A DNA stretch of 64,000 nucleotides from Candidatus Altimarinota bacterium (lineage in GTDB: Bacteria; Patescibacteriota; Gracilibacteria; 1-14-2-50-48-13). The notes below the pieces were generated by a model that saw nothing but the letters and a program-made list of their open reading frames with translations, ran no database searches and was not told where the DNA came from. The DNA is taken from positions 64,001 through 128,000 of the forward strand of contig JBKBWQ010000001.1 in the NCBI GenBank assembly GCA_046314355.1. Reading direction: 5' to 3'. This document shows positions 1,284 to 44,114 of the stretch, piece by piece. The position numbers and the translations under genes were made by a program. The stretch's first letter is position 1, and each line of letters begins with the position of its first letter.

Positions 1284-2807
1284 ATGCGCTATCTTTCTCT
1301 CTTCGTATTTTGCAATGGTATGGCTATCATGGCTCTTGAAATGGCAGCTGCCCGTTTTCTTGCTCCCTATTTCGGAAGCTCTACTATCGTCTGGGCAAAT
1401 ATTATTGGTGTTATTATGGCAGCGCTTGCGTTGGGATACAGTCTAGGTGGAAAATTTGCTGATAAGCATCCGAAATTTTCTTACTTCTACGGGATTGGTA
1501 TTCTTGGTGGTATTCTGTTGAGTGTGCTTCCTCTTTTTGTACAAGTGCTTCTTAACCCTATTACAGGAGCCATTCTTACACTTCCTCTCTGGGAAATACT
1601 TGGTTCTTTTATCATGTCAGTACTCTTTTTTGGTATCCCTGTGACTTTTCTTGCTATGCTCAGTCCCTACGCGGTAAGGCTTGCGAGTCATGAGGTATCA
1701 AGTGTAGGTAGTAAGGCAGGTAATCTCTATTCCTGGTCTACAGTCGGAAGCATTCTAGGAGTATACATCAGTACCTTCATTACTATTCCATTTGTAGGTG
1801 TAAAAGAGACAATGTGGATTTTTGCATTGCTCATACTTTTCTTAAGTATCTGCGGTCTGTTGATCTTAAATAAGGGAAAAATCGGAAAATTATGGATGGT
1901 GTTACTAGTACCTATTGTATTTTCTATACTTAATGCAGCAGTCACTATACCAATATCTGCGAAAGTACTTGTGCAGAAAGAAAGTCTTTATCAGCATATT
2001 AAAGTACTTGAGAATGAAAACAATGACCGTTATTTAGTATTTAATGAAGGCGGCGGGATCCAGTCAGTTTATAATCCTAATAAACTGCTTTCAGGATTTT
2101 ATTATGATTCATATCCTTTGTTTACCTTACAGGAGGGGTGGCAGAATAAGAAAGATCTCAATGTCCTGATTATTGGTTATGCCGGAGGTACTATAGGAAA
2201 ACTATTTCATGCAATGAATATGCCGGGGCAGAATCTCCATATTGATGGAGTGGAGATTGATGAAGAAGTGACTGATATAAGTAAAAAATATATGGCTGTA
2301 ACAGATGCGGAACGGCAAATCTATACTCAGGATGGTCGTACATATCTGAAAAGCACTGATAAAAAATATGACATTATTATCGTAGACGCATATACAAGAG
2401 AGCATTATATTCCTCCTCACCTTATTACAGAAGAATTCTTTAATGATGTTTCAGAGCATCTTACCTCTGATGGACGCGTACTATTTAACATCAATGCAAA
2501 GAACCGTGATTCAGTGCTTCTGAATACTACGATCAATACTTTACATCAAATATTTCCTGAAGTTGAACTTATGCCCATTAAAGGATCATACAATTACATC
2601 CTTACAGCGGGATCGAAGAAAATAGTATTTCAGAATGAAGTACCACAGTACCTTTCTGAAGATATTGGTGCTCTGTTTCTCAATATAAAAACAGCACTCA
2701 TCTCTGCTCCTAAAGAGCAAAATGCTGGTATTTTTACAGATAATAAAAATGCCATTGAGCATATGACAAATAATGATATTTGGGATGTCTTTTTTGTTCA
2801 AAAATAG
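1284..2807 (+). CDS. Fused MFS-like membrane domain / spermidine synthase-like SAM-dependent transferase
   Basis: N-terminal TM block (MALEMAAAR, GSSTIVWANIIG); C-terminal VLIIGYAGG, VEID, DGR, YDIIIVDAY. Confidence 0.88.
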   Translation: MRYLSLFVFCNGMAIMALEMAAARFLAPYFGSSTIVWANIIGVIMAALALGYSLGGKFADKHPKFSYFYGIGILGGILLSVLPLFVQVLLNPITGAILTLPLWEILGSFIMSVLFFGIPVTFLAMLSPYAVRLASHEVSSVGSKAGNLYSWSTVGSILGVYISTFITIPFVGVKETMWIFALLILFLSICGLLILNKGKIGKLWMVLLVPIVFSILNAAVTIPISAKVLVQKESLYQHIKVLENENNDRYLVFNEGGGIQSVYNPNKLLSGFYYDSYPLFTLQEGWQNKKDLNVLIIGYAGGTIGKLFHAMNMPGQNLHIDGVEIDEEVTDISKKYMAVTDAERQIYTQDGRTYLKSTDKKYDIIIVDAYTREHYIPPHLITEEFFNDVSEHLTSDGRVLFNINAKNRDSVLLNTTINTLHQIFPEVELMPIKGSYNYILTAGSKKIVFQNEVPQYLSEDIGALFLNIKTALISAPKEQNAGIFTDNKNAIEHMTNNDIWDVFFVQK

Positions 2808-2868: not shown

Positions 2869-3717
2869 TTATAAGACCAATTCATACATACGCATAAAGA
2901 CACAGATTGCTCCTACTGCTGTATTAACCCAAGGAAATAACCAATAGAACCTCTCTAGACTTTTTTCCGAAAAGAAAAAATTTAAAACCATCAGTACGGG
3001 ATATATACCTAAAAGCAGTCCTATCCAGGATGAGAATAAACTAACTATATAAGCACTGCCTATATAACAAAGTGTACAGAAGATCAGAGTTCCATTTTTT
3101 CCTAGAAAAGTCGCTATAGTATTGAGAGAAGCATTTTTGTCTACTTGTATGTCAGGAATGGCAGAATATGCATGCATTCCCATACACCACAGTACTCCAG
3201 CGGCAACTATGAAAGCGGGAGGCAGCATGTGTGTAGAAAGATAATATCCGATAATTCCCGGCACTACATACAGACTATTGAAAAGTGTATCTATCAATGG
3301 AATGGCTTTTGCACGGATTGGTGTAGCGCTATAAAAAGCTGAGAGAAAAAGAAATATTAGAAAAAGAGATCCCAGTACTGGACTATAGAAAAGTGAAGTG
3401 AGTATTATACCTACTGTGATAGCTATACTAATCCAGCTTTTCAGCAGTGCATGTTCTTCTTTGATTACCAATGCTTCTTTAGTGTGTTTTTTTGGATTAT
3501 TTTTGTCGGTATCGTAATCAAAGATATCATTTATGCCATATACGAAAAGATTCGCTGGAAATGTAAACCAGAGAAAAAAGAAGATCAGCGAGGAAGTCTG
3601 AAGCAGGTTTAAAGAAGGTATTCCGTATATAACTCCAAGCAGAAAAGTTCCGGCAAGGTATGTCCAGAATCTTGGACGGGAAATTTTGAGAAGTTTAGCT
3701 AGAAGTTGTAGCGTCAT
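2869..3717 (-). CDS. UbiA-family prenyltransferase, lycopene elongase/hydratase-like (LyeJ/CrtEb type)
   Basis: SRPRFWTYLAG, FPANLFVYGINDIFDYDTDKNNPKK, YSATPIRAK, MHAYSAIPDI match the LyeJ-type pattern; last gene of a crt operon; start moved to ATG 3717. Confidence 0.85.
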   Translation of the reverse strand: MTLQLLAKLLKISRPRFWTYLAGTFLLGVIYGIPSLNLLQTSSLIFFFLWFTFPANLFVYGINDIFDYDTDKNNPKKHTKEALVIKEEHALLKSWISIAITVGIILTSLFYSPVLGSLFLIFLFLSAFYSATPIRAKAIPLIDTLFNSLYVVPGIIGYYLSTHMLPPAFIVAAGVLWCMGMHAYSAIPDIQVDKNASLNTIATFLGKNGTLIFCTLCYIGSAYIVSLFSSWIGLLLGIYPVLMVLNFFFSEKSLERFYWLFPWVNTAVGAICVFMRMYELVL

Positions 3718-4720
3718 GACTATAAGTATCAATAAGTTTTTGAATTACCTCCGAATCATCTAGTCCGAGAAGACCCATTTTTACTCCTGCAATAAGTAGA
3801 AAATCATTAATATCTACTTGTATATCTTTGAGGATTCCCACTTCGTGAATTTTAGCAATAATTTCTTTTTCGTCATCTTCTGAGAGTATGGTTTGCAGAA
3901 CATACGCTTTTTCCACTCGCGCTTTTAACTCTTCAGATAAATGAGGGAGTACATCAATAAGAATTGGAGTCATTTTTGCTCTCATAATATCTCCACAACG
4001 ATCAGAATCTGCCATTCTTTTCTTTGTACCGATAATCTCACTCATATCATCATAGAGTTGATATGCAATACCGAGATTATCTGAAAAATCTAAAAGATAA
4101 TCTAAAGAAATTTTATGAGAATGTTCTGCATCAGTATAATAAGCTGCAATAATGAGGGGAAAATAAATGGAATATTCTGCAGTTTTCTTCTTATAGAAAC
4201 TGAGAGTCTCCGCTGTTGTAGGAGTCTTTGCTGAAGTAAATTCAAGTATTTGTCCATTTGCGGTATTAGAGCAAATTTCTAATGTCTTTTCTTGAATAAT
4301 TCTAAGTGTTTTATCTGAAGCTCCCTGACTAATGCACTTGAGAGCTTCCGTATAGAGAAGATCTCCTAATACTAAAGCAAGTGCACGTCCTGCTGTCTCG
4401 GATCTTCCTTTTGCAAAATATGCATGAAGAGTAAGTTTATCACGACGCATCTCATCATTATCCATAATGTCATCATGGATAAGAAAAAAATTATGGATTA
4501 GTTCAATTCCTGATGCTATATGTAATGTTTGTTCATTGATCGTTCCTCCCCAAATGGAGCATGCCTCTAAGAAAAGAAGAGGACGCACTTGTTTGCCGCC
4601 TTCGAGAATATAGGATTTTAAATAGTGGTATTCTTCAGGATATGGTTCAAGAATTCTATCAATTAAAGCAGAAAAATAGGTATCAAAAGATTTCTTTAAA
4701 TCTGCGAGAGGTATTTTCAT
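3695..4720 (-). CDS. crtE: Polyprenyl (geranylgeranyl) diphosphate synthase
   Basis: GGKQVRP, ELIH, LIHDDIMDNDEMRR (FARM), GQ, KTA, YQLYDD (SARM); within crt operon. Confidence 0.85.
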   Translation of the reverse strand: MKIPLADLKKSFDTYFSALIDRILEPYPEEYHYLKSYILEGGKQVRPLLFLEACSIWGGTINEQTLHIASGIELIHNFFLIHDDIMDNDEMRRDKLTLHAYFAKGRSETAGRALALVLGDLLYTEALKCISQGASDKTLRIIQEKTLEICSNTANGQILEFTSAKTPTTAETLSFYKKKTAEYSIYFPLIIAAYYTDAEHSHKISLDYLLDFSDNLGIAYQLYDDMSEIIGTKKRMADSDRCGDIMRAKMTPILIDVLPHLSEELKARVEKAYVLQTILSEDDEKEIIAKIHEVGILKDIQVDINDFLLIAGVKMGLLGLDDSEVIQKLIDTYSHDATTSS

Positions 4721-4732
4721 GTGAAAGTGAAA

Positions 4733-5569
4733 CTATGCGTGAAGTAATAGGTGCAGAAAGTTGCACATCATGCGTCTTCTGCTGCTCTTTATTTTTCTCT
4801 GGAACACTACCAGCGGATTTTTTTCTATCTCGAGGAGTGTATCATAATACGTAAATGCCGCAAGTCTTACGGCAATACGGCAAGAAAAGGGGAGATAGTC
4901 AAATCCCTTATTTGCTGTTTGTTGTATATCTTTTGTTCTTTGTATCTCAAATTGAAGTAAAGAAAGTATCTTCTTTTCATCTAGAAAATGTCCATTCCAC
5001 CACTCCTCCTCCGTAATACCAAACTTTTTCAAATCCTCAAGCGGCATATATATTCTCTCCCGCACGCTATCTTCTTTTATGTCTCTTATAAAATTTATGA
5101 GCTGCATGGATTTTCCAAGTGCCTGAGCATACACCAAACCCTCATTTTTAATTCCCATAAGCTTCGACATCATGAGCCCAATGACTTCTGCTGAACCAAA
5201 AATATAAGTTTCTACTTCAGGATAAGTGTCATAAGTCTTTTTCCATAGATCCATCTCCATTGAATCAAGAAAAGCATCTACCCACTGTTTTTCAAAATCA
5301 AACTTATGGGCAAGCTTTGTAAAAGTAAGGATCACTATATTTGTGCTTTTACCTGTACTCCAGCAGTTTTCAAACTCACTTCTAAATTGTTTCAAAGCAC
5401 TTCTGGGATCTTCACTAGGATTATCTACTATTTCATCTGCAAGCCTTACAAAAGCATACAGAACATATACGTTATGGCGTATTTGGCGGGGAAAAAGCAG
5501 TGTAGAGTAATAGTATGTCTTACTATGAGCTTTAAATATATTTTTGCAGAGTTTAATTTCTTCGGACAT
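4733..5569 (-). CDS. crtB: Phytoene synthase
   Basis: HSKTYY, LYAFVRLADEIVD, FLDSMEMDL, GSAEVIGLM, MQLINFIRDIKED, RIYMP. Confidence 0.93.
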   Translation of the reverse strand: MSEEIKLCKNIFKAHSKTYYYSTLLFPRQIRHNVYVLYAFVRLADEIVDNPSEDPRSALKQFRSEFENCWSTGKSTNIVILTFTKLAHKFDFEKQWVDAFLDSMEMDLWKKTYDTYPEVETYIFGSAEVIGLMMSKLMGIKNEGLVYAQALGKSMQLINFIRDIKEDSVRERIYMPLEDLKKFGITEEEWWNGHFLDEKKILSLLQFEIQRTKDIQQTANKGFDYLPFSCRIAVRLAAFTYYDTLLEIEKNPLVVFQRKIKSSRRRMMCNFLHLLLHA

Positions 5570-7037
5570 ATTTTTTGATTTGTTGTGAAGTGAGCTGAGA
5601 ACTTATGAGACACATAGGTACTCCAATTCCAGGAATCGTATTTGCTCCTGTGTAAAAGAGATTATGTACTTTATTACTCTTATTTCTAGGCCGGAAAAAA
5701 GCTGTTTGAAAGAGTGTGTGTGCAAGTCCTAGAGCAGAGCCCTTATGACTATTGTATTTTTTCTTAAAATCCGAGACAGTAAAGATTTTTTTAATATGAA
5801 CATGATTTTCAATACTTTCTCCCAGCCATTCTTCAAGCATAGAAATGATTTTTGACTGATAGAGAGTCCTAATGGTCTCATCATCTTCTAAGCCGCTTGC
5901 GACGGGGACAAGTACAAATACATTTTCTCCGTAATGCGGAGCAACAGTATCATCTGTCTTTGATGGACAGCCAATATAGATGGAAGGATTCTCGGGCCAT
6001 TCCGGCTGGTCAAATATCTCAGCAAAATGTTTCTGCCAGTCACTGGCGAAGAAGAGGTTATGATGCTGAAGTTTTGCGAGCTTTTTATTAAGACCTAAAT
6101 AGATAATAAAGGCGGAAGGTGATTGTGTGCGTTTTTTCCAGTATGTTTCAGAGTACTGCTGATATTTTTTTGGAAGCAGACGTGTTTCTGTAAAATGGTA
6201 GTCTCCATTAGACAGTATGACATCTCCTTTTACATATGTTCCATTTGTAAGCATGATGCCTGATGCTTTCTTTGTACCTGGATCAATGCATATTTTCTCC
6301 ACAGATATATTTGAGTGAAGTTTTGCTCCAAATTCCTTTGCAAGTTTTATGAGTGCGCAAGGGATTTCATACATTCCACCTTTGGGATACCATACTCCCA
6401 TATTGAAATCTATGTGGGACATGATGTTGTAAAGTGCAGGTGTATTTTTGGGAGACCCACCCAGGAATACAAGAGTATACTGCATGATCTGCTGTATTCT
6501 TTTATCCTTAAAGAATCGTGATACATATTTATCCATGTTTTCAAAGACATGAAGCTTGCTGCCCTCTATGAGGAGCTTTTTATTGAAAAAGCTAAAGATA
6601 GAAGAGTAATTCTTATATACAAAATCCTTCATGGCAATGTGATAAGACTCTTCACTTCTTTGTATGAATTCTTTTAACTTTGCTTTTGAACCTTTTTCCC
6701 AAGATTCGAACAAATCACCAAGCTCATCAATATCCGTCGAAATATCATAGTAAGTCTTGTCCTCAAAAAATACCCGGTAACTGGGGGTAAGCTGCTGGAG
6801 TGATAAATAATCTTCAATGTTTTTCCCAACGGATTTGAAGAATTTTTCAAATACATCAGGCATGAGATACCAGGATGGTCCCATATCAAAGCGGAATCCA
6901 TCTTCAGAAAAGGTATTCGCTCTGCCTCCAAGATTCTCATTTTTTTCAAAAAGCTCCACGTCAAAGCCTTCTTTTGCGAGCTGTACTGCGCTTGCAAGTC
7001 CTCCGATCCCTCCCCCAATAATAAGAACTTTCTTCAT
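5553..7037 (-). CDS. crtI: Phytoene desaturase family protein (CrtI/CrtD)
   Basis: IIGGGIGGL FAD motif, GFRFDMGPSWYLMP, YPKGGM, GLAHTLFQTAFFRP, PGIGVPMCLIS. Confidence 0.92.
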   Translation of the reverse strand: MKKVLIIGGGIGGLASAVQLAKEGFDVELFEKNENLGGRANTFSEDGFRFDMGPSWYLMPDVFEKFFKSVGKNIEDYLSLQQLTPSYRVFFEDKTYYDISTDIDELGDLFESWEKGSKAKLKEFIQRSEESYHIAMKDFVYKNYSSIFSFFNKKLLIEGSKLHVFENMDKYVSRFFKDKRIQQIMQYTLVFLGGSPKNTPALYNIMSHIDFNMGVWYPKGGMYEIPCALIKLAKEFGAKLHSNISVEKICIDPGTKKASGIMLTNGTYVKGDVILSNGDYHFTETRLLPKKYQQYSETYWKKRTQSPSAFIIYLGLNKKLAKLQHHNLFFASDWQKHFAEIFDQPEWPENPSIYIGCPSKTDDTVAPHYGENVFVLVPVASGLEDDETIRTLYQSKIISMLEEWLGESIENHVHIKKIFTVSDFKKKYNSHKGSALGLAHTLFQTAFFRPRNKSNKVHNLFYTGANTIPGIGVPMCLISSQLTSQQIKKYVRRN

Positions 7038-7049
7038 TACAAGTGTTAA

Positions 7050-7307
7050 TTATTTCTTCTTGCTTCCCCAGCGCCACTCTGGCTTTTCACCGGTTCTATA
7101 ACAGATAAGAATAAGTAAAATAGTCAGTATAAGAATTTGTAAAAATGCACCATAAGGTAGAGTTTTTTCTATCTCCGCATTCCGCGTCACTGGAATAAGT
7201 ATGGCAGCAAGCAAGACAATATAGCCAATAAGAATACACCACCCTTGCCAGCTTGCTGGCGTCCATCCATAGCCGTATGTCTTGTTTTTGAACCAAAGGT
7301 GCTTCAT
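7050..7307 (-). CDS. Small two-TM membrane protein (WFxxKxYGxGWxP...W type)
   Basis: MKHLWFKNKTYGYGWTPASWQGW ... TGEKPEWRWG; ATG at 7307; 12 bp upstream of crtI. Confidence 0.8.
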   Translation of the reverse strand: MKHLWFKNKTYGYGWTPASWQGWCILIGYIVLLAAILIPVTRNAEIEKTLPYGAFLQILILTILLILICYRTGEKPEWRWGSKKK

Positions 7308-23429: not shown

Positions 23430-24608
23430 TTATTTTTTATCTAAAGCGTTAATCTCATGCATTATCTCCTGTGCCTCATCAGTATGTAGTACCCAAATAT
23501 CTGCAGTAGAGTCTTCCTTTTTTATATTAGAAGGGGCAATGTTTGCGTTATTTTTCTTTGTATCAATTACAATTCCTAATGCCTCAAGTCCAGAGATGAT
23601 TTTTTCCCTCAGGTAAAAGGATGCTTCACCGGTTCCTGCTGTAAATACAATTGCGTCGCACCCTCCCAAAGCTGCTGTATACCCTCCAATATATTTTTGA
23701 ATATGATACACATAAGATTTAATGGCATTTTGACAGAGATCATTGCCTGCATTTGCTTGCTCAATGATGATTCTCATATCAGAGATGCCGCCTGTAAGTC
23801 CTTTTAGGCCTGACTCATAGTTGAGAATATTTTCTACTTTTTCTATAGCTTCATGAAGAGTGAGATTCTCCTCCTGATGCTTTAGAAGTTCTATAACAAC
23901 CCCTGGATCCATATCTCCGCCTCGTGTACGCATGATGATTCCTTCTAGCGGAGTAAGCCCCATGGACGTATCAAGACTTTTACCGTTTTTAATTGCTGTA
24001 ATACTTGAACCACTGCCGAGATGACAAATAATAATTCTACCTGGAAGCTTTTTTTTATAAAGAATAGTGAGCTGTTTGAGAATTGACTGACATGAAAGTC
24101 CATGAAAGCCGTATTTTCTTATTCCAAAGTTATTTTCAAAAGCTTTAGGAAGCGCATAATTAGCTATGTACTCAGGTATGGAACTATGAAATGCCGTATC
24201 AAACGAAGCATAAATGGGAGTATGTGGAACTCTACGAAGAAGTTTTTCTATAATTTTTATTGCTGGCGGATTATGAAGAGGAGCAAGACTGCTGATCTTT
24301 TTTAAATTTTTGAGTACTTCCGGAGTTATTCTTGTGGTTTTCTTGAATGTAGGACCTCCATGTACTACACGTATGCCAATAGCTGCAAAATCTTTCTGAG
24401 ACACTATTATTTTCTGTTTTTTCAATGTTGAAAAAATCATTTTGAGAGGATCAAGAGCTTCCTCTTTCGTGAGACATTTTTCACTTCCCTGACAGAGGAC
24501 ACACGAGTACGGTCCTGAATGCTCAAGAGTCCCTGATAAAATCTCTTTTTTATTTGAATATACTGCAAATTTTGTACTGGAACTTCCAGGGTTAAGGACA
24601 AGTATCAT
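23430..24608 (-). CDS. ackA: Acetate kinase
   Basis: VLNPGSSSTKF, RVVHGG, APLHNP, FDTAFH, YGFHGLS, HLGSGSS, DTSMGLTPLEG; ATG at 24608. Confidence 0.96.
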   Translation of the reverse strand: MILVLNPGSSSTKFAVYSNKKEILSGTLEHSGPYSCVLCQGSEKCLTKEEALDPLKMIFSTLKKQKIIVSQKDFAAIGIRVVHGGPTFKKTTRITPEVLKNLKKISSLAPLHNPPAIKIIEKLLRRVPHTPIYASFDTAFHSSIPEYIANYALPKAFENNFGIRKYGFHGLSCQSILKQLTILYKKKLPGRIIICHLGSGSSITAIKNGKSLDTSMGLTPLEGIIMRTRGGDMDPGVVIELLKHQEENLTLHEAIEKVENILNYESGLKGLTGGISDMRIIIEQANAGNDLCQNAIKSYVYHIQKYIGGYTAALGGCDAIVFTAGTGEASFYLREKIISGLEALGIVIDTKKNNANIAPSNIKKEDSTADIWVLHTDEAQEIMHEINALDKK

Positions 24609-24622
24609 ATAGTGTTGTTTTA

Positions 24623-26965
24623 TTATTCCCACTTCCATTCAGTGATCCACTCAGGATCAGTACCGAATTCTGTGATATAAGCTCTATGGGAGAGAAGAAG
24701 ATTTTCGATCTCTTTTCTTGCTACATCGCAGGTTCTGGAAGGTGCAAGGTTCTGTTCCTTCATAATTTCGAGTGCATCCATGATGAGATGGTATCTGCTG
24801 GTCTGATTTCTCACATGCATATCAAAAGGTGTCGTCGTAGAACCCTCTTCCATATATCCATGAATATGGAATCTAGAAGGCGCCTCCTTAGTATCAAAAA
24901 TGAGATGTTTTACATCTGCTGTATATCCGTGATAGTTGAAAATTACGTGTTTATCAGGAGTAAAATATGAATTAAACTCTTTATTCGTAGTAAGAGATCT
25001 TGGATCTGAAACACCTAGTGCAGTCATTTCAGAGACGTTTACATACCTTGTCTTGATTTCAGGGAATCTCTCTCTAAGCCATTTGACTGCAGCAAGAGTC
25101 TCTGTTGTCTGATAGAATCCTGCACTTGCGAAGACGATATCAGGATTCTTCTTACTTGCAAAATCCCAGATACCAATACCCGTTTTTACCTGTTTTCGGG
25201 CTTCATCAAGACTAAGCCACTGTAGTGCTTCCTGTTTGCAGGTAACAATTACATTAATACAATTTGTATCAGTAAGACACTCTTCCATTACTGCGATAGT
25301 ACTATTCAGATCTACAGGGAAGTACACACTTGCGAAGTTTCCATTTTTTTCAAGAATATTACTTACAAATCCAGGATTTTGATGAGAGAAACCGTTGTGA
25401 TCCTGTCTCCATCCAAGACTTGCAAGTAAATAATTGAAAGATGGAACTGGCTTTCTCCATGCGTATTCACGTGAAGCTTTTAGAAATTTTCCATATTGAT
25501 CGCACATGCTTGAGACGATCTGGATGAAAGCTTCATAGGAAGAAAAAATCCCGTGCCGTCCTGTAAGAACGTATCCCTGCATCATTCCCTGAAGCGTGTG
25601 TTCCGAGAGCATTTCTACGGTTCTACCATGTGGAGAGATGGATACATCATGCTGAAGAATTGGCCATTGAAAAGCTCTAGGTGCTGCTTCATAGACAGCA
25701 TCGAGTTTATTTGAAGTGGTCTCATCAGGACAGAAAAGCCGTGCGGAAGTAGGATTATTTTTGATAATATCTCTAAAATAGGTTCCTGCTCCTTTTGTGG
25801 CAAAACCGATATCATGACCTCTTTTTCCTAGAGGGAATGCATAGTTTTTGAGTTTCGGAAGTTTCAATGCTTTTCTGATTTCTCCGCCGAAGGCATGTTT
25901 ATTGTTTCCCATTCGTAGCTTTTCGGGAGGCAGCATGGCAAGGATATCCTTTGAAAATCCTTTTTTAGCATCATAAAGTTCTTCAATCTTGTAGCTTTTC
26001 AGCCATTTTTCAAGGGCTTTAAGTTCTGTGGGATCGTTTTTTGGATCGTGTACTACTATCTGATGTGAGAGATTATTATTTTCAATATCTTGTCCATGAA
26101 GTGTTTTGATCCCAGTCCATCCCTTCGCACTTCTTAGGATAACCATCGGCCACTGAGGTTTAAGTACATCCTTTTCGGTACGTGCCGTAGTCTGAATAGC
26201 TTTAATCTCTTTATATGCAGCATGCATTGTCTCAGACATTATTGCATGTGGATCTTTTGCTTTGAAAATGTCTACGAAGTGAACTTTGTATCCGTATCCT
26301 TCATAAAGCTTTGTAAGTTCCTTATCACTCATTCTTCCTGTGATAGTTGGACCTGTAATCTTGTATCCATTTAAATGAAGAATAGGAAGCACGGCTCCAT
26401 CCTGCTTAGGATCGAGAAACTTATTACTATGCCAAGCAGCGGCTGTAGGACCAGTCTCAGCTTCACCGTCTCCGATGATACATGCGGCGATAAGATCAGG
26501 GTTATCCATCACTGCGCCGAAAGCTGTAGAAAGACTATACCCAAGTTCACCTCCTTCAACGATCATTCCAGGAGCACCAGGATTGGAGTGACTTGGAAAT
26601 CCGTATGCTTGCGAGAATTTGTGAATTAATTCTGAAAGACCTTTGTAGTTATATGGAAGATTTTTGTAATATTTTGTAAGTGTTTTCTCTAAGAAAAGAC
26701 TAGCCTGAATAGCAGGGAATCCATGGCCGGGACCCAGGATAAACATCATGTTTGCATTGTTTTCTTTGATGATTTCATTGAGATGCATCCATGTAAAATT
26801 GATACCTGGTACCGTACCCCAATGTCCAAGAAGGCGAGCCTTGATATGCTCGGGTTTAAGCGGCTCTTGTAGGAGAAAGTTATCTTGAAGGAAAATCTGC
26901 GCGGCAGCTACGTAGTTTAGTGCCCGGAAATATTCAGGAAAATGAGAGGAAGAGGATGGTTTCAT
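24623..26965 (-). CDS. xfp: Xylulose-5-P/fructose-6-P phosphoketolase
   Basis: LLGHWGT, GPGHG, EGGELGY, GDGEAETGP (TPP motif), PDETTSN, LSEH, QDHNGFSHQNP, EEGSTTTPFDM. Confidence 0.97.
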   Translation of the reverse strand: MKPSSSSHFPEYFRALNYVAAAQIFLQDNFLLQEPLKPEHIKARLLGHWGTVPGINFTWMHLNEIIKENNANMMFILGPGHGFPAIQASLFLEKTLTKYYKNLPYNYKGLSELIHKFSQAYGFPSHSNPGAPGMIVEGGELGYSLSTAFGAVMDNPDLIAACIIGDGEAETGPTAAAWHSNKFLDPKQDGAVLPILHLNGYKITGPTITGRMSDKELTKLYEGYGYKVHFVDIFKAKDPHAIMSETMHAAYKEIKAIQTTARTEKDVLKPQWPMVILRSAKGWTGIKTLHGQDIENNNLSHQIVVHDPKNDPTELKALEKWLKSYKIEELYDAKKGFSKDILAMLPPEKLRMGNNKHAFGGEIRKALKLPKLKNYAFPLGKRGHDIGFATKGAGTYFRDIIKNNPTSARLFCPDETTSNKLDAVYEAAPRAFQWPILQHDVSISPHGRTVEMLSEHTLQGMMQGYVLTGRHGIFSSYEAFIQIVSSMCDQYGKFLKASREYAWRKPVPSFNYLLASLGWRQDHNGFSHQNPGFVSNILEKNGNFASVYFPVDLNSTIAVMEECLTDTNCINVIVTCKQEALQWLSLDEARKQVKTGIGIWDFASKKNPDIVFASAGFYQTTETLAAVKWLRERFPEIKTRYVNVSEMTALGVSDPRSLTTNKEFNSYFTPDKHVIFNYHGYTADVKHLIFDTKEAPSRFHIHGYMEEGSTTTPFDMHVRNQTSRYHLIMDALEIMKEQNLAPSRTCDVARKEIENLLLSHRAYITEFGTDPEWITEWKWE

Positions 26966-30051: not shown

Positions 30052-30969
30052 ATGGATAGATCAAAATATAACCCTCTCACGGAAGAAGAAAGATATATTA
30101 TAGAAGATAAAGGAACAGAAGCTCCATATAGCGGTGAATACGAAGAATTTTTTCAGCAGGGAACTTATATTTGTAAAAGGTGTAATACGCCTCTCTACCG
30201 GTCAAAGGATAAGTTTAAAAGCGGATGCGGATGGCCGAGTTTCGATGATTCCATTTCAGGACGCGTTACTGAAACAACGGATGCCGATGGGAGAAGAACT
30301 GAAATTACATGTACCACATGCGGGGCACATTTAGGACATGTATTTAAAGGAGAAGGTTTTACAGAAAAAGATACAAGACACTGCGTAAATTCTCTTTCCA
30401 TGAAATTTATTCCTGAGAAATTAAACGATGCTGAAGAAGAAACTGCAACATTGGGAGGAGGATGTTTTTGGTGTGTTGAAGGCACACTTAGTCTTTTAAA
30501 AGGAGTGTTGAAAGTAGAATCTGGATATAGCGGAGGCAAAAGAGAGAATCCAAGCTATGATCAGGTTTCAACCGGTGCTACTGGACATGTCGAAGTTGCA
30601 CAAGTCACTTTCGATCCGCGCATAATAAATTTTAGACAATTACTTGAAGTGTTTTTTACAATTCATGATCCTACAACTTTAGATAGACAGGGAAATGACA
30701 TAGGAACTCAATATGCATCTGCTATTTTTTATCATTCGTCTGAACAGAAAGAAACTGCTCTGGAAGTCATACAAGAACTCAACGATCAGGATATTTGGGT
30801 TGCTCCTATTGTTACAAAGGTACTGCCTCTTGAAAAATTCTGGAAAGCAGAAGAATATCACCAAGAGTATTTCAAAAATAATGCTTCACAGCCATACTGT
30901 AAAATTGTCATTGACCCGAAGGTGAAAAAACTAAGAGAGAAATGGAAGGACTGGTTGAAAGATAGTTAA
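30052..30969 (+). CDS. msrAB: Bifunctional methionine sulfoxide reductase MsrB-MsrA fusion
   Basis: MsrB: GTE, CxxC, GCGWPSF, HLGHVF, RHCVNS; MsrA: GGCFWC, GYSGG, GHVE, HDPT, AEEYHQ, YC. Confidence 0.96.
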   Translation: MDRSKYNPLTEEERYIIEDKGTEAPYSGEYEEFFQQGTYICKRCNTPLYRSKDKFKSGCGWPSFDDSISGRVTETTDADGRRTEITCTTCGAHLGHVFKGEGFTEKDTRHCVNSLSMKFIPEKLNDAEEETATLGGGCFWCVEGTLSLLKGVLKVESGYSGGKRENPSYDQVSTGATGHVEVAQVTFDPRIINFRQLLEVFFTIHDPTTLDRQGNDIGTQYASAIFYHSSEQKETALEVIQELNDQDIWVAPIVTKVLPLEKFWKAEEYHQEYFKNNASQPYCKIVIDPKVKKLREKWKDWLKDS

Positions 30970-42485: not shown

Positions 42486-42676
42486 ATGACGACTACCGTG
42501 TTTACAACGACAAAAGCGACTATAATGAGTGATGGTTCGACATTCAGAAGGATGTTTGGGCAATACTTTCTCTTTAGGAAAGTACAGTAGGCAGATTGCA
42601 ATGAGGAGATAACTATCTCTGTTATTTGTAATTGTGCCTTATCTGAATACCCGCAGGCTAGTACCTCGGTTTTTTT
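42486..42676 (+). promoter_or_regulatory. Candidate leader-peptide attenuator upstream of ABC-F gene
   Basis: uORF 42486-42590 (MTTTVFTTTKATIM..., 34 aa), long hairpin 42589-42649, terminator-like CCG-C-AGG/CCT-CGG plus T7 at 42651-42676; TTGACT...TATAAT at 42443-42469. Confidence 0.6.
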
Positions 42677-42695
42677 GCTTATAACACGATTTTTT

Positions 42696-44114
42696 ATGTT
42701 ACAAATTTCAAATATTACTATATCACATGGAGGACACACATTCCTGGAACAGTGCTCCTTTAGTCTGGAAGGAAAGTCCAGAAAACGCATAGCTTTACTT
42801 GGTACAAATGGTTCAGGGAAGTCCTCTCTCTTAAAAGTCATGGCGGGAGTGGATGAGGTCTCGGCCGGAACAATTTCTTTATCTCGTGAATCTATTGGAT
42901 ACGTAACGCAGGAGATCTCTCTCCCTGAAGATCAGATGATCGGAGAATATATGGAGGCTCTTCTGGAGGAATCCTGGATGTCTTACAAAATACAGCTAGT
43001 TCTGGAAGAAGTGGGACTTTCAGAATATATTATTTTACAAAATATTACTTCTCTCTCTGGAGGAGAAAAAGTGAGACTCGGTATTGCCATAGGCTTGCTG
43101 CTGGAGCCTACTATTTTATTACTTGATGAACCAACGAACCATTTAGATACACACGGTCTTCTCTGGCTTGGAGCATTTGTACAAAATTTTCCCGGAACCA
43201 TCATGCTCATTACTCATGATAGAACATTTATAAATACGTATATGACTGAGCTTTGGGAGATAGATACAGCTATGGCTTCTATCAAAAAATATACAGGAAA
43301 CTATGAGGCGTATTTAGCAGAGAAAGAGCGGTTACTTGCTCAGGAAGTGCAGGAATATGAATGGTATCAGAAGCATATTGATGAGATAGTCATGTGGCTC
43401 AAAGCCAATGAGTTTCATCCTAAGTATCAGTTCTCTGACCGCGTACTCTCCCGCAAAAAAGCTCTTGAAAACTATACCAAGAACCAGCCTCCTCGACCTG
43501 TAATACGTCCTCCTATGAGTCCGCTAGAATCTAAGGATATTAGTGAGCAGCGTCTTGTAAAAGTTGTCATTCAAAGTAAATGTATTGGTGATAAAAGCAT
43601 TCTCTTGAATAAAGAAATCATAGTGCGTACTGGAGATAGAATTAGAATATCAGGACCAAACGGAAGCGGGAAGTCTACACTGCTCAAAATACTTTCAAAA
43701 GTAGATAAGGACTTTGCAGGAGAATATATATCAAGTGAAACTTTAAGGATCGGATATTTGGCACAGGAAGTAGCTTTGCCAAAGGAGCGGAAAGTTCTTG
43801 AATATATTCGTGAAGTGATGCATACCAATGATACAACTGCGAGAGGAATCCTGACACATTTTCTGTTTACTGCGGGGCAGATGGAGCAGAGGATAGGGAA
43901 CTTGAGTTTTGGCGAAGAAAAGCGACTAAAGCTTGCTCTTATCCTGCAGGACAAGCCCAATCTATTGATTCTAGATGAACCTACGAATCATCTGGATGTG
44001 CAGTCGAGAGAGGATCTAGAGAGGTTCTTGGCTACAGTGCAGACGATGGTGGTGGTGACTCATGATACGTATTTCGCTGAGAAGATGGGATTTTCTAAGG
44101 AAATAGAATTGTAA
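42696..44114 (+). CDS. ABC-F family ATP-binding protein (ribosome-associated)
   Basis: Two NBDs (GTNGSGKS, LSGGE, LLDEPTNHLD; GPNGSGKS, LSFGE, ILDEPTNHLD), no TMs; ATG at 42696. Confidence 0.93.
   Translation: MLQISNITISHGGHTFLEQCSFSLEGKSRKRIALLGTNGSGKSSLLKVMAGVDEVSAGTISLSRESIGYVTQEISLPEDQMIGEYMEALLEESWMSYKIQLVLEEVGLSEYIILQNITSLSGGEKVRLGIAIGLLLEPTILLLDEPTNHLDTHGLLWLGAFVQNFPGTIMLITHDRTFINTYMTELWEIDTAMASIKKYTGNYEAYLAEKERLLAQEVQEYEWYQKHIDEIVMWLKANEFHPKYQFSDRVLSRKKALENYTKNQPPRPVIRPPMSPLESKDISEQRLVKVVIQSKCIGDKSILLNKEIIVRTGDRIRISGPNGSGKSTLLKILSKVDKDFAGEYISSETLRIGYLAQEVALPKERKVLEYIREVMHTNDTTARGILTHFLFTAGQMEQRIGNLSFGEEKRLKLALILQDKPNLLILDEPTNHLDVQSREDLERFLATVQTMVVVTHDTYFAEKMGFSKEIEL

Follow-up and report, generated by a model that had tools for sequence, protein, structure and literature searches.

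A 64,000-nucleotide stretch of the genome of Candidatus Altimarinota bacterium (contig JBKBWQ010000001.1, positions 64,001 to 128,000), called the window here, contains the carotenoid operon crtI-crtB-crtE-lyeJ. We consider it probable that the encoded enzymes convert isoprene units derived from a host cell into an acyclic C50 carotenoid, bisanhydrobacterioruberin (BABR), and that this carotenoid serves as a protective pigment. The reading draws on gene families, on gene linkage, and on genes that were searched for and not found in the assembly, designated G000 (the window is G000:C1:64001-128000). The pathway is a known one, to which the cluster contributes a further lineage of Patescibacteria. 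Its additions to what is known are the gap in precursor supply, the link to photolyase, and a prenyl synthase with two phenylalanines (FF) in front of its first Asp-rich motif.

The G000 assembly comprises 1,688,208 bp in 28 contigs and is 98.26% complete; the first contig, of 1,619,055 bp, accounts for 96% of it. The genome shares its GTDB class, which we take to be Gracilibacteria of Patescibacteria, with G032 and with the TGA-recoded G042, in which a gene runs through ten TGA codons; G000 itself reads in table 11. The loss of ribosomal protein uL30 is a hallmark of the candidate phyla radiation (CPR), and uL30 (PF00327) was not found in G000 while 13 of 14 controls were matched, which together with the shared class upholds the original prediction that the organism belongs to the CPR. 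Searches of G000 with E. coli queries returned no orthologues of fabD, fabF, fabH, fabZ, accA, plsB, plsX, cdsA, pgpA, lpx, bamA, or cyo, and the fabG query matched one generic reductase; housekeeping controls were found. The expected lack of membrane-lipid synthesis thus holds for the fab, pls, cdsA, and accA genes looked for in this way.

The operon and its predicted elongase

Five open reading frames without internal stops are located at positions 2869-7307 on the minus strand of the window. In reading order, these are a small membrane gene (7050-7307, 85 amino acids); crtI/crtD, encoding a phytoene desaturase that is predicted to be a bifunctional phytoene/3,4-desaturase (5553-7037, 494 amino acids); crtB, for a phytoene synthase of predicted C40 type (4733-5569, 278 amino acids; SQS_PSY, E 1e-59); a crtE/idsA-like gene for a trans-isoprenyl diphosphate synthase, whose product may be C15 or C20 (3695-4720, 341 amino acids; polyprenyl_synt, E 1e-41); and a gene of the UbiA superfamily for a LyeJ-type lycopene elongase/1,2-hydratase (2869-3717, 282 amino acids from ATG, or 287 from an alternative upstream TTG at 3732). 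Pfam and NCBIfam models of the Amino_oxidase/crtI, SQS_PSY, polyprenyl_synt, and UbiA families all match at E ≤ 1e-22. Gaps of 12 bp separate the small gene from crtI and crtB from crtE, crtI and crtB overlap by 17 bp, and crtE and the elongase gene overlap by 23 bp. Promoter and terminator scans gave results at the level of chance (16 against 17.9 expected, and 3 against 3.1). The genes are therefore assigned to an operon because of their packing and conserved linkage: crtI, crtB, crtE, and lyeJ are also linked in G003, G017, G021, G032, and most of the phylum matches. The tight minus-strand operon of four enzyme families had been proposed from the window, and its coordinates and spacing were borne out.

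The small gene encodes two hydrophobic segments, in agreement with the membrane gene described ahead of the operon, and is probably co-transcribed with the other four. It has no Pfam or NCBIfam match, its neighbours in Atlas are hypothetical proteins, and tblastn found no homologue in 204 loci, which included all fetched crt clusters. It is not conserved with the cluster and was rejected as a component of the pathway.

The UbiA-superfamily protein passes PRK12875 (296.9 bits, cut-off 205) but reaches 115 bits against a cut-off of 217 on PRK13105, the model of the CrtEb family. For calibration, Haloarcula japonica LyeJ (locus L084) passes PRK12875 with 455.5 bits, and a CrtEb-type CPR protein passes PRK13105. 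The elongase shares 38.6% identity with Ha. japonica LyeJ, 43% with a Rubrobacter homologue, and 27.9% with an Arthrobacter CrtEb-type protein. BLAST gave no significant match between it and E. coli UbiA, and its scores on quinone and heme UbiA models are all ≤ 33 bits. The sequence SRPRFWTYL occupies residues 13-21 and PANLFVYGINDIFDYDTDKNNPKK residues 54-77, and the Asp-rich motifs are invariant among 30 homologues. Both motifs had been quoted as shared by haloarchaeal LyeJ and actinobacterial CrtEb. They are present in the protein, but in the alignment SRPRFWxYL is restricted to the LyeJ type, and the aligned CrtEb-type proteins read SRPISWxNTAYPF there.

A quick tree of the elongase had 77 rows and took in 36 of the 80 named loci, and a careful tree contained 35 of those 77 rows. 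In both trees the elongase lies outside the CrtEb clade (support 99/100 in the careful tree) and is separated by long branches from UbiA, MenA, and CyoE. Together with the model scores, this led us to reject its identity as CrtEb or as a quinone or heme UbiA enzyme. The quick tree places the elongase with haloarchaea, Rubrobacter, and other CPR (SH-aLRT 94); the careful tree did not reproduce this grouping, and therefore no donor lineage is claimed. The protein is a LyeJ-type elongase by family, as originally suggested, and its catalysis is predicted.

Proposed pathway and supply of isoprene units

The desaturase scores 671.5 bits on the model of bifunctional CrtI/CrtD enzymes (CrtID, NF058655; cut-off 640), which is also passed by Ha. 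japonica C0507 (763.6 bits) and the Rubrobacter homologue (659.1 bits). Its identity is 45% to C0507, 54% to the Rubrobacter homologue, 35% to S. xylosus CrtN, and 28% to P. ananatis CrtI, and its gene is single-copy in G000. In the desaturase tree it groups away from CrtN and Pantoea CrtI. CrtB contains both Asp-rich motifs and is closest, among named homologues, to the proteins of Rubrobacter and Thermobaculum (43-46% identity). It has T and L where the C30 synthase CrtM has F26 and F233, positions that determine product size; CrtB enzymes are described as the specific C40 gatekeeper (PMC4510654). The window CrtB is predicted to be a phytoene synthase of the C40 type. A C30 identity of the pair as CrtM and CrtN was rejected, since CrtB lacks F26 and F233 and both CrtB and CrtI group away from CrtM and CrtN.

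Genes that would modify the product further were not found. CruF (PF04240) had no match in G000 while controls were matched, and our own CruF profile matched only two Nudix-domain proteins there, so a hidden cruF was rejected. The C50 cyclase family (PF18916) had no match in G000, and the C. glutamicum control was matched; no CrtY-type cyclase scored above the cut-off in G000; and no type-1 rhodopsin was found in G000 with a positive control that was matched. A function in supplying retinal to a rhodopsin was rejected on the basis of the missing type-1 rhodopsin and CrtY-type cyclase, with heliorhodopsin and Blh outside the searches. The roles of the bacterioruberin genes are described for the genetically characterised crtD-lyeJ-cruF cluster of Ha. 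japonica (PMC11946383), and the order of the steps is given in PMC13061102; with no CruF, cyclase, or rhodopsin found, this order implies a pathway that would end at BABR. The acyclic C50-type carotenoid first proposed from the window alone stays the best prediction when the whole genome is considered.

In the pathway that we propose, IPP (isopentenyl diphosphate) and DMAPP (dimethylallyl diphosphate) would be imported, likely from the host, and used by CrtE to build prenyl diphosphate. CrtE would likely make both farnesyl diphosphate (FPP) and geranylgeranyl diphosphate (GGPP), because it is the only trans-synthase found in G000 and must also prime UppS, which is present. CrtB would join two GGPP molecules into phytoene, which CrtI/D would desaturate to lycopene. 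At both ends of lycopene, LyeJ would attach a C5 unit from DMAPP together with a hydroxyl, and the double bonds at 3,4 and 3',4' would be introduced by CrtI/D. In the absence of CruF, synthesis would stop at BABR, which has two hydroxyls, and would not reach bacterioruberin, which has four. The BABR diol would span the membrane and likely act mainly against light and oxygen damage.

The original prediction called the pigment self-made. Family searches of G000, in which controls were matched, found no HMGR, DXR, GHMP kinases, IspH, or IDI-2. Neither dxs nor ispD, ispF, or ispG was found in G000 with queries from E. coli, and CPR queries found no HMGS, DPMD, PMVK, or isopentenyl phosphate kinase (IPK). 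The best match to the isopentenyl diphosphate isomerase IDI-1 in G000 is a Nudix protein whose 33.6 bits are far under the cut-off of 105.8 and in which the cysteine of E. coli Idi is missing; a hidden IDI was rejected because the two Nudix proteins, which are the ones matched by the CruF profile, lack this cysteine. Since no mevalonate (MVA) or methylerythritol phosphate (MEP) pathway, IPK, or IDI was found, the isoprene units are not self-made by a known route. The G000 gene at C1:375569-376597 encodes a hydrophobic N-terminal domain fused to a C-terminal Nudix domain.

The phylum was sampled evenly with 401 genomes that were at least 90% complete, and elongase-like genes were accepted at E ≤ 1e-20. 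Such a gene is present in 25 of the 401 genomes and scores over the LyeJ cut-off in 12. Two of the 25, G387 and G409, lack crtB and crtE and probably do not have carotenoid clusters; they were kept in the counts. HMGR was found in 23 and IspH in 32 of the 401 genomes, and 23 of the 25 elongase-positive genomes have neither. With G000 excluded, HMGR or IspH occurs in 2 of 24 elongase-positive genomes versus 53 of 376 negatives (p 0.55). Among 30 elongase-hit genomes, which are the 25 and five class relatives, phytoene synthase and trans-synthase are each present in 28, CruF in five, IDI-1 in three, GHMP kinase in one, and a match to the IPK query in none. Elongase clusters usually reside in genomes without a known route to isoprene units, and the uptake of host IPP and DMAPP is the most economical explanation.

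Rickettsia, which is inferred to scavenge host IPP, DMAPP, and FPP, likewise keeps downstream prenyl enzymes without MEP or MVA (PMC6854040). It differs in living in eukaryotic cytoplasm, in keeping idi, and in using the precursors for essential lipids, whereas the window organism is a presumed episymbiont, in which no IDI was found and which would also spend precursors on pigment. Neither MVA nor MEP is present in 2.61% of the species analysed in PMC13001223, in which no mention of Patescibacteria was found. No paper on CPR carotenoid clusters lacking MVA and MEP was found in a literature search that left subscription journals mostly uncovered, so the absence of such a paper is unproven.

Three genomes contain parts of these routes. 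IspH is present in G017 (C3:165474-166298, L008) and G032 (C9:8428-9261, L009), with no GHMP kinase found and hence no IspE. It is possibly a truncated MEP tail that would convert host HMBPP (4-hydroxy-3-methylbut-2-enyl diphosphate) to IPP and DMAPP. The LyeJ-positive genome G115 (C8:54927-56006) has HMGR and IDI-1 but no GHMP kinase or match to the IPK query, and its mevalonate route is incomplete or unusual.

Alternative products and precursor routes

Several observations weigh against the proposed pathway. The desaturase clears the CrtID cut-off by only 31 bits, and the careful tree does not resolve the backbone of the LyeJ-like proteins. The aromatic residues at positions -5 and -4 of CrtE fit the pattern of type I FPP synthases, and a stand-alone orthologue in G001, a genome of the same family, suggests a housekeeping FPP role by descent. 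A transporter of prenyl diphosphates was neither identified nor searched for, and, as the assembly has not been shown to be closed, one of its gaps could contain an MVA operon with clustered genes. Related genes from Lake Baikal originate from deep, dark water, and adaptation to cold and membrane curvature has been argued for them (PMC9948471).

The first alternative is a desaturase with CrtI activity only, which would lead to tetrahydro-BABR or a C45 intermediate. The narrow pass on the CrtID model would fit this, as would the desaturase tree, in which the protein is on a long branch with no starred grouping. However, the desaturase scores higher on CrtID than the Rubrobacter homologue and is the sole one in the genome, like those of the single-copy bacterioruberin makers in PMC11946383, and we regard the alternative as unlikely.

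The second alternative concerns the chain length of the CrtE product. CrtE reads HNFFLIH-DDIMD, in which positions -5 and -4, counted from the first Asp-rich motif, are both F. Two aromatic residues are the pattern of type I FPP synthases and one that of type I GGPP synthases (PMC3679732, PMC9385802). This rule has exceptions, because a bifunctional maize enzyme with FF is listed in PMC3679732. The closest solved relatives of CrtE are archaeal GGPP synthases, which have one aromatic there, and its AlphaFold model is all-helical (pLDDT 92.5). Two aromatics are present in eight of the nine closest homologues, the window's own included, and in three of 30 CPR synthases examined, all from the family of G000. 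The third of these FF synthases, from G001, belongs to the same clade (support 100) and lies alone in a 14-kb region near trmB, without crtI, crtB, or lyeJ; G001 is 85% complete and has no lyeJ match. CrtE could be a strict FPP synthase serving UppS, with CrtB fed by host GGPP and a product that would still be C50. The distribution of FF and the stand-alone orthologue favour this possibility. On the other side, crtE overlaps lyeJ and is in the operon in both G000 and G003, and GGPP is rare in non-carotenogenic bacterial hosts, which makes this arrangement improbable. The simplest reading is that the resident CrtE would prime UppS and make enough GGPP for CrtB; as the putative supplier of C20, it is the weak link of the pathway.

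There is only a slight chance that the cell makes its own IPP and DMAPP, whether with genes that the assembly lacks or by a route not yet recognised, for example the salvage of prenol. The 28 contigs without shown closure leave room for this, and CPR MVA genes are often clustered, so that one gap could hide them (PMC6107057). Against it, nearly the whole assembly is one contig, not one MVA or MEP gene, GHMP kinase, or IPK was found, and the same gap recurs in 23 of the 25 elongase-positive genomes, several of which are assembled in 1-10 contigs. The import of host IPP and DMAPP is preferred.

A C30 route, in which CrtE would make FPP, CrtB a C30 backbone, and LyeJ a C35/C40 diol from 4,4'-diapolycopene, is consistent with the FF signature and with C. 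glutamicum CrtEb, which in engineered E. coli extends a C30 carotenoid to C35 (PMC4763220), but is very doubtful given the CrtB residues at the two size-determining positions, the gatekeeper role of CrtB (PMC4510654), and the proximity of CrtB and CrtI to Rubrobacter and Thermobaculum, apart from CrtM and CrtN. It is just as doubtful that the Gracilibacteria family combines a housekeeping FPP synthase in a LyeJ operon with host IPP and DMAPP to form a C35/C40 diapo-bacterioruberin-type diol. In the papers cited here, an elongated C30-backbone skeleton is known only from engineered E. coli; the substrate range of elongases is treated in PMC4763220 and PMC6393565, and the elongase in PMC12650772 is haloarchaeal.

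Related clusters and probable role

The operon resembles Ha. japonica's cluster crtI/crtD (c0507)-lyeJ (c0506)-cruF (c0505) in the desaturase and elongase, which pass the same curated cut-offs, and in a C40-type CrtB. It differs in that crtB, separate in Ha. japonica, and crtE are inside the operon, and no cruF was found in it; in the lack of a detected mevalonate pathway or IDI in the genome; and in the two aromatics, instead of one, in the trans-synthase. The locus would work like the bacterioruberin pathway without being a full member, CruF having been looked for and not found. Of the named loci, those with the highest identity (CrtI 53-54%, CrtB 43-46%, LyeJ 43-46%) come from Rubrobacter, from Thermobaculum, and from a record of Chloroflexia (L015-L017, L032, L043); there, crtI-crtB-lyeJ follow in the same order but with no crtE between crtB and lyeJ. 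The actinobacterial crtE-crtB-crtI-crtYe/Yf-crtEb operons for decaprenoxanthin and sarcinaxanthin also lead from a prenyl synthase to a UbiA-family C5 elongase, whereas the window elongase is not of the CrtEb type and no C50 cyclase was found.

Actinobacterial-type clusters also occur in other Patescibacteria, and CrtEb-type CPR genomes mostly have a cyclase adjoining the elongase. This second type of C50 cluster was observed in G170, G238, G273, G284, G349, G355, G370, G390, and G396 (loci L107-L118), in which a CrtEb-type elongase is adjacent to a gene of the C50-cyclase family; these clusters group with an Arthrobacter plasmid CrtEb-type protein.

A carotenoid cluster in a CPR bacterium had been presented as a surprise, but the type is published for Patescibacteria and is common. 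Genes for lyeJ, crtD, and cruF were reported in Lake Baikal Patescibacteria, with a proposed membrane role (PMC9948471). These genes are of the same families and from the same phylum, but are partly scattered, include cruF, and belong to a Saccharibacterium and to 'Baikalibacteria' bins, whereas the window contains a compact operon in a Gracilibacteria-class genome; the words 'phytoene' and 'mevalonate' are not in the main text of PMC9948471. A Saccharimonas genome contains crtB, crtE, crtYf, and a ubiA (PMC11484240). Related clusters were found in Saccharibacteria, Parcubacteria, Uhrbacteria, Paceibacteria, Peribacteria, Acidobacteriota, Chloroflexota, Rubrobacter, and haloarchaea. Blastocatellia/Pyrinomonadaceae loci (L018-L031 and others) have, upstream of lyeJ, CruF homologues of ~430-460 residues, far longer than haloarchaeal CruF; Nudix/IDI-like proteins were among the matches of a profile including them, a sign that CruF may be fused to IDI. 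A single 571-residue frame at L200:5227-6942 (G136:C22) matches both crtB and lyeJ and is a possible CrtB-LyeJ fusion. At L091:4718-7849, crtI, crtB, and lyeJ appear in short pieces under table 11, and another genetic code may be used.

Photolyase was found in 9 of 24 genomes with an elongase gene, against 13 of 376 without one (Fisher p 6e-7, which is overstated as related genomes are not independent); for the LyeJ type only, the counts are 5 of 11 and 17 of 389. Genomes with both genes span several families, and photolyase lies inside the fetched cluster region in 3 of 11 LyeJ-type genomes; in G000 it is at C1:754474. The co-occurrence speaks for protection against light and oxygen rather than for a structural role alone, and the two are compatible. 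Membrane reinforcement and quenching of reactive oxygen species had both been suggested for the carotenoid; on comparative grounds, light protection would be a likelier role than reinforcement. No paper on a link between CPR carotenoid clusters and photolyase was found, with subscription journals mostly uncovered and absence thus unproven. A fused MsrB/MsrA methionine sulfoxide reductase above the curated cut-off, an oxidative-stress gene, is encoded at 30052-30969 on the plus strand of the window.

The neighbours of the operon on the contig are typA-like, mscL-like, trmB, and ATP synthase genes, with the typA, mscL, and atp names read from sequence and not from a family scan. The GC content of the operon is 36% compared with 38%, and its genes have codon-adaptation percentiles of 8-98 among 859 genes. 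Both are inside the range of the genome, and the operon is therefore native or long resident; a contaminant contig or very recent foreign insert was rejected on these grounds, the length of the contig, and the neighbouring genes. A fused membrane/spermidine-synthase-family gene (1284-2807, plus strand) is convergent with the end of the operon. Elsewhere in the window, a phosphoketolase gene adjoins acetate kinase (23430-26965, minus strand) in a fermentative ATP module, and the same pair is found near the prenyl synthase of G001. An ABC-F family ATPase (42675-44114, plus strand) is nearest to a ribosomal-protection-like model, with 341.8 below the cut-off of 380.

Two points merit testing, namely the apparent reliance on isoprene units from a host and how long a chain the FF synthase makes. 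With this synthase the chain-length rule could be tested cheaply, and there is a slight possibility of finding a natural carotenoid with a new skeleton. The link to photolyase suggests that the operon marks light-exposed CPR lineages. The metabolic gap is the useful point: a pathway that needs ten isoprene units per pigment is kept without a known route to them, and most sampled elongase-positive CPR genomes would make no isoprene units by a known route. If the operon is expressed, its pigment could be followed by eye and by isotope labelling and would thereby report on the uptake of host phosphorylated metabolites by CPR bacteria.

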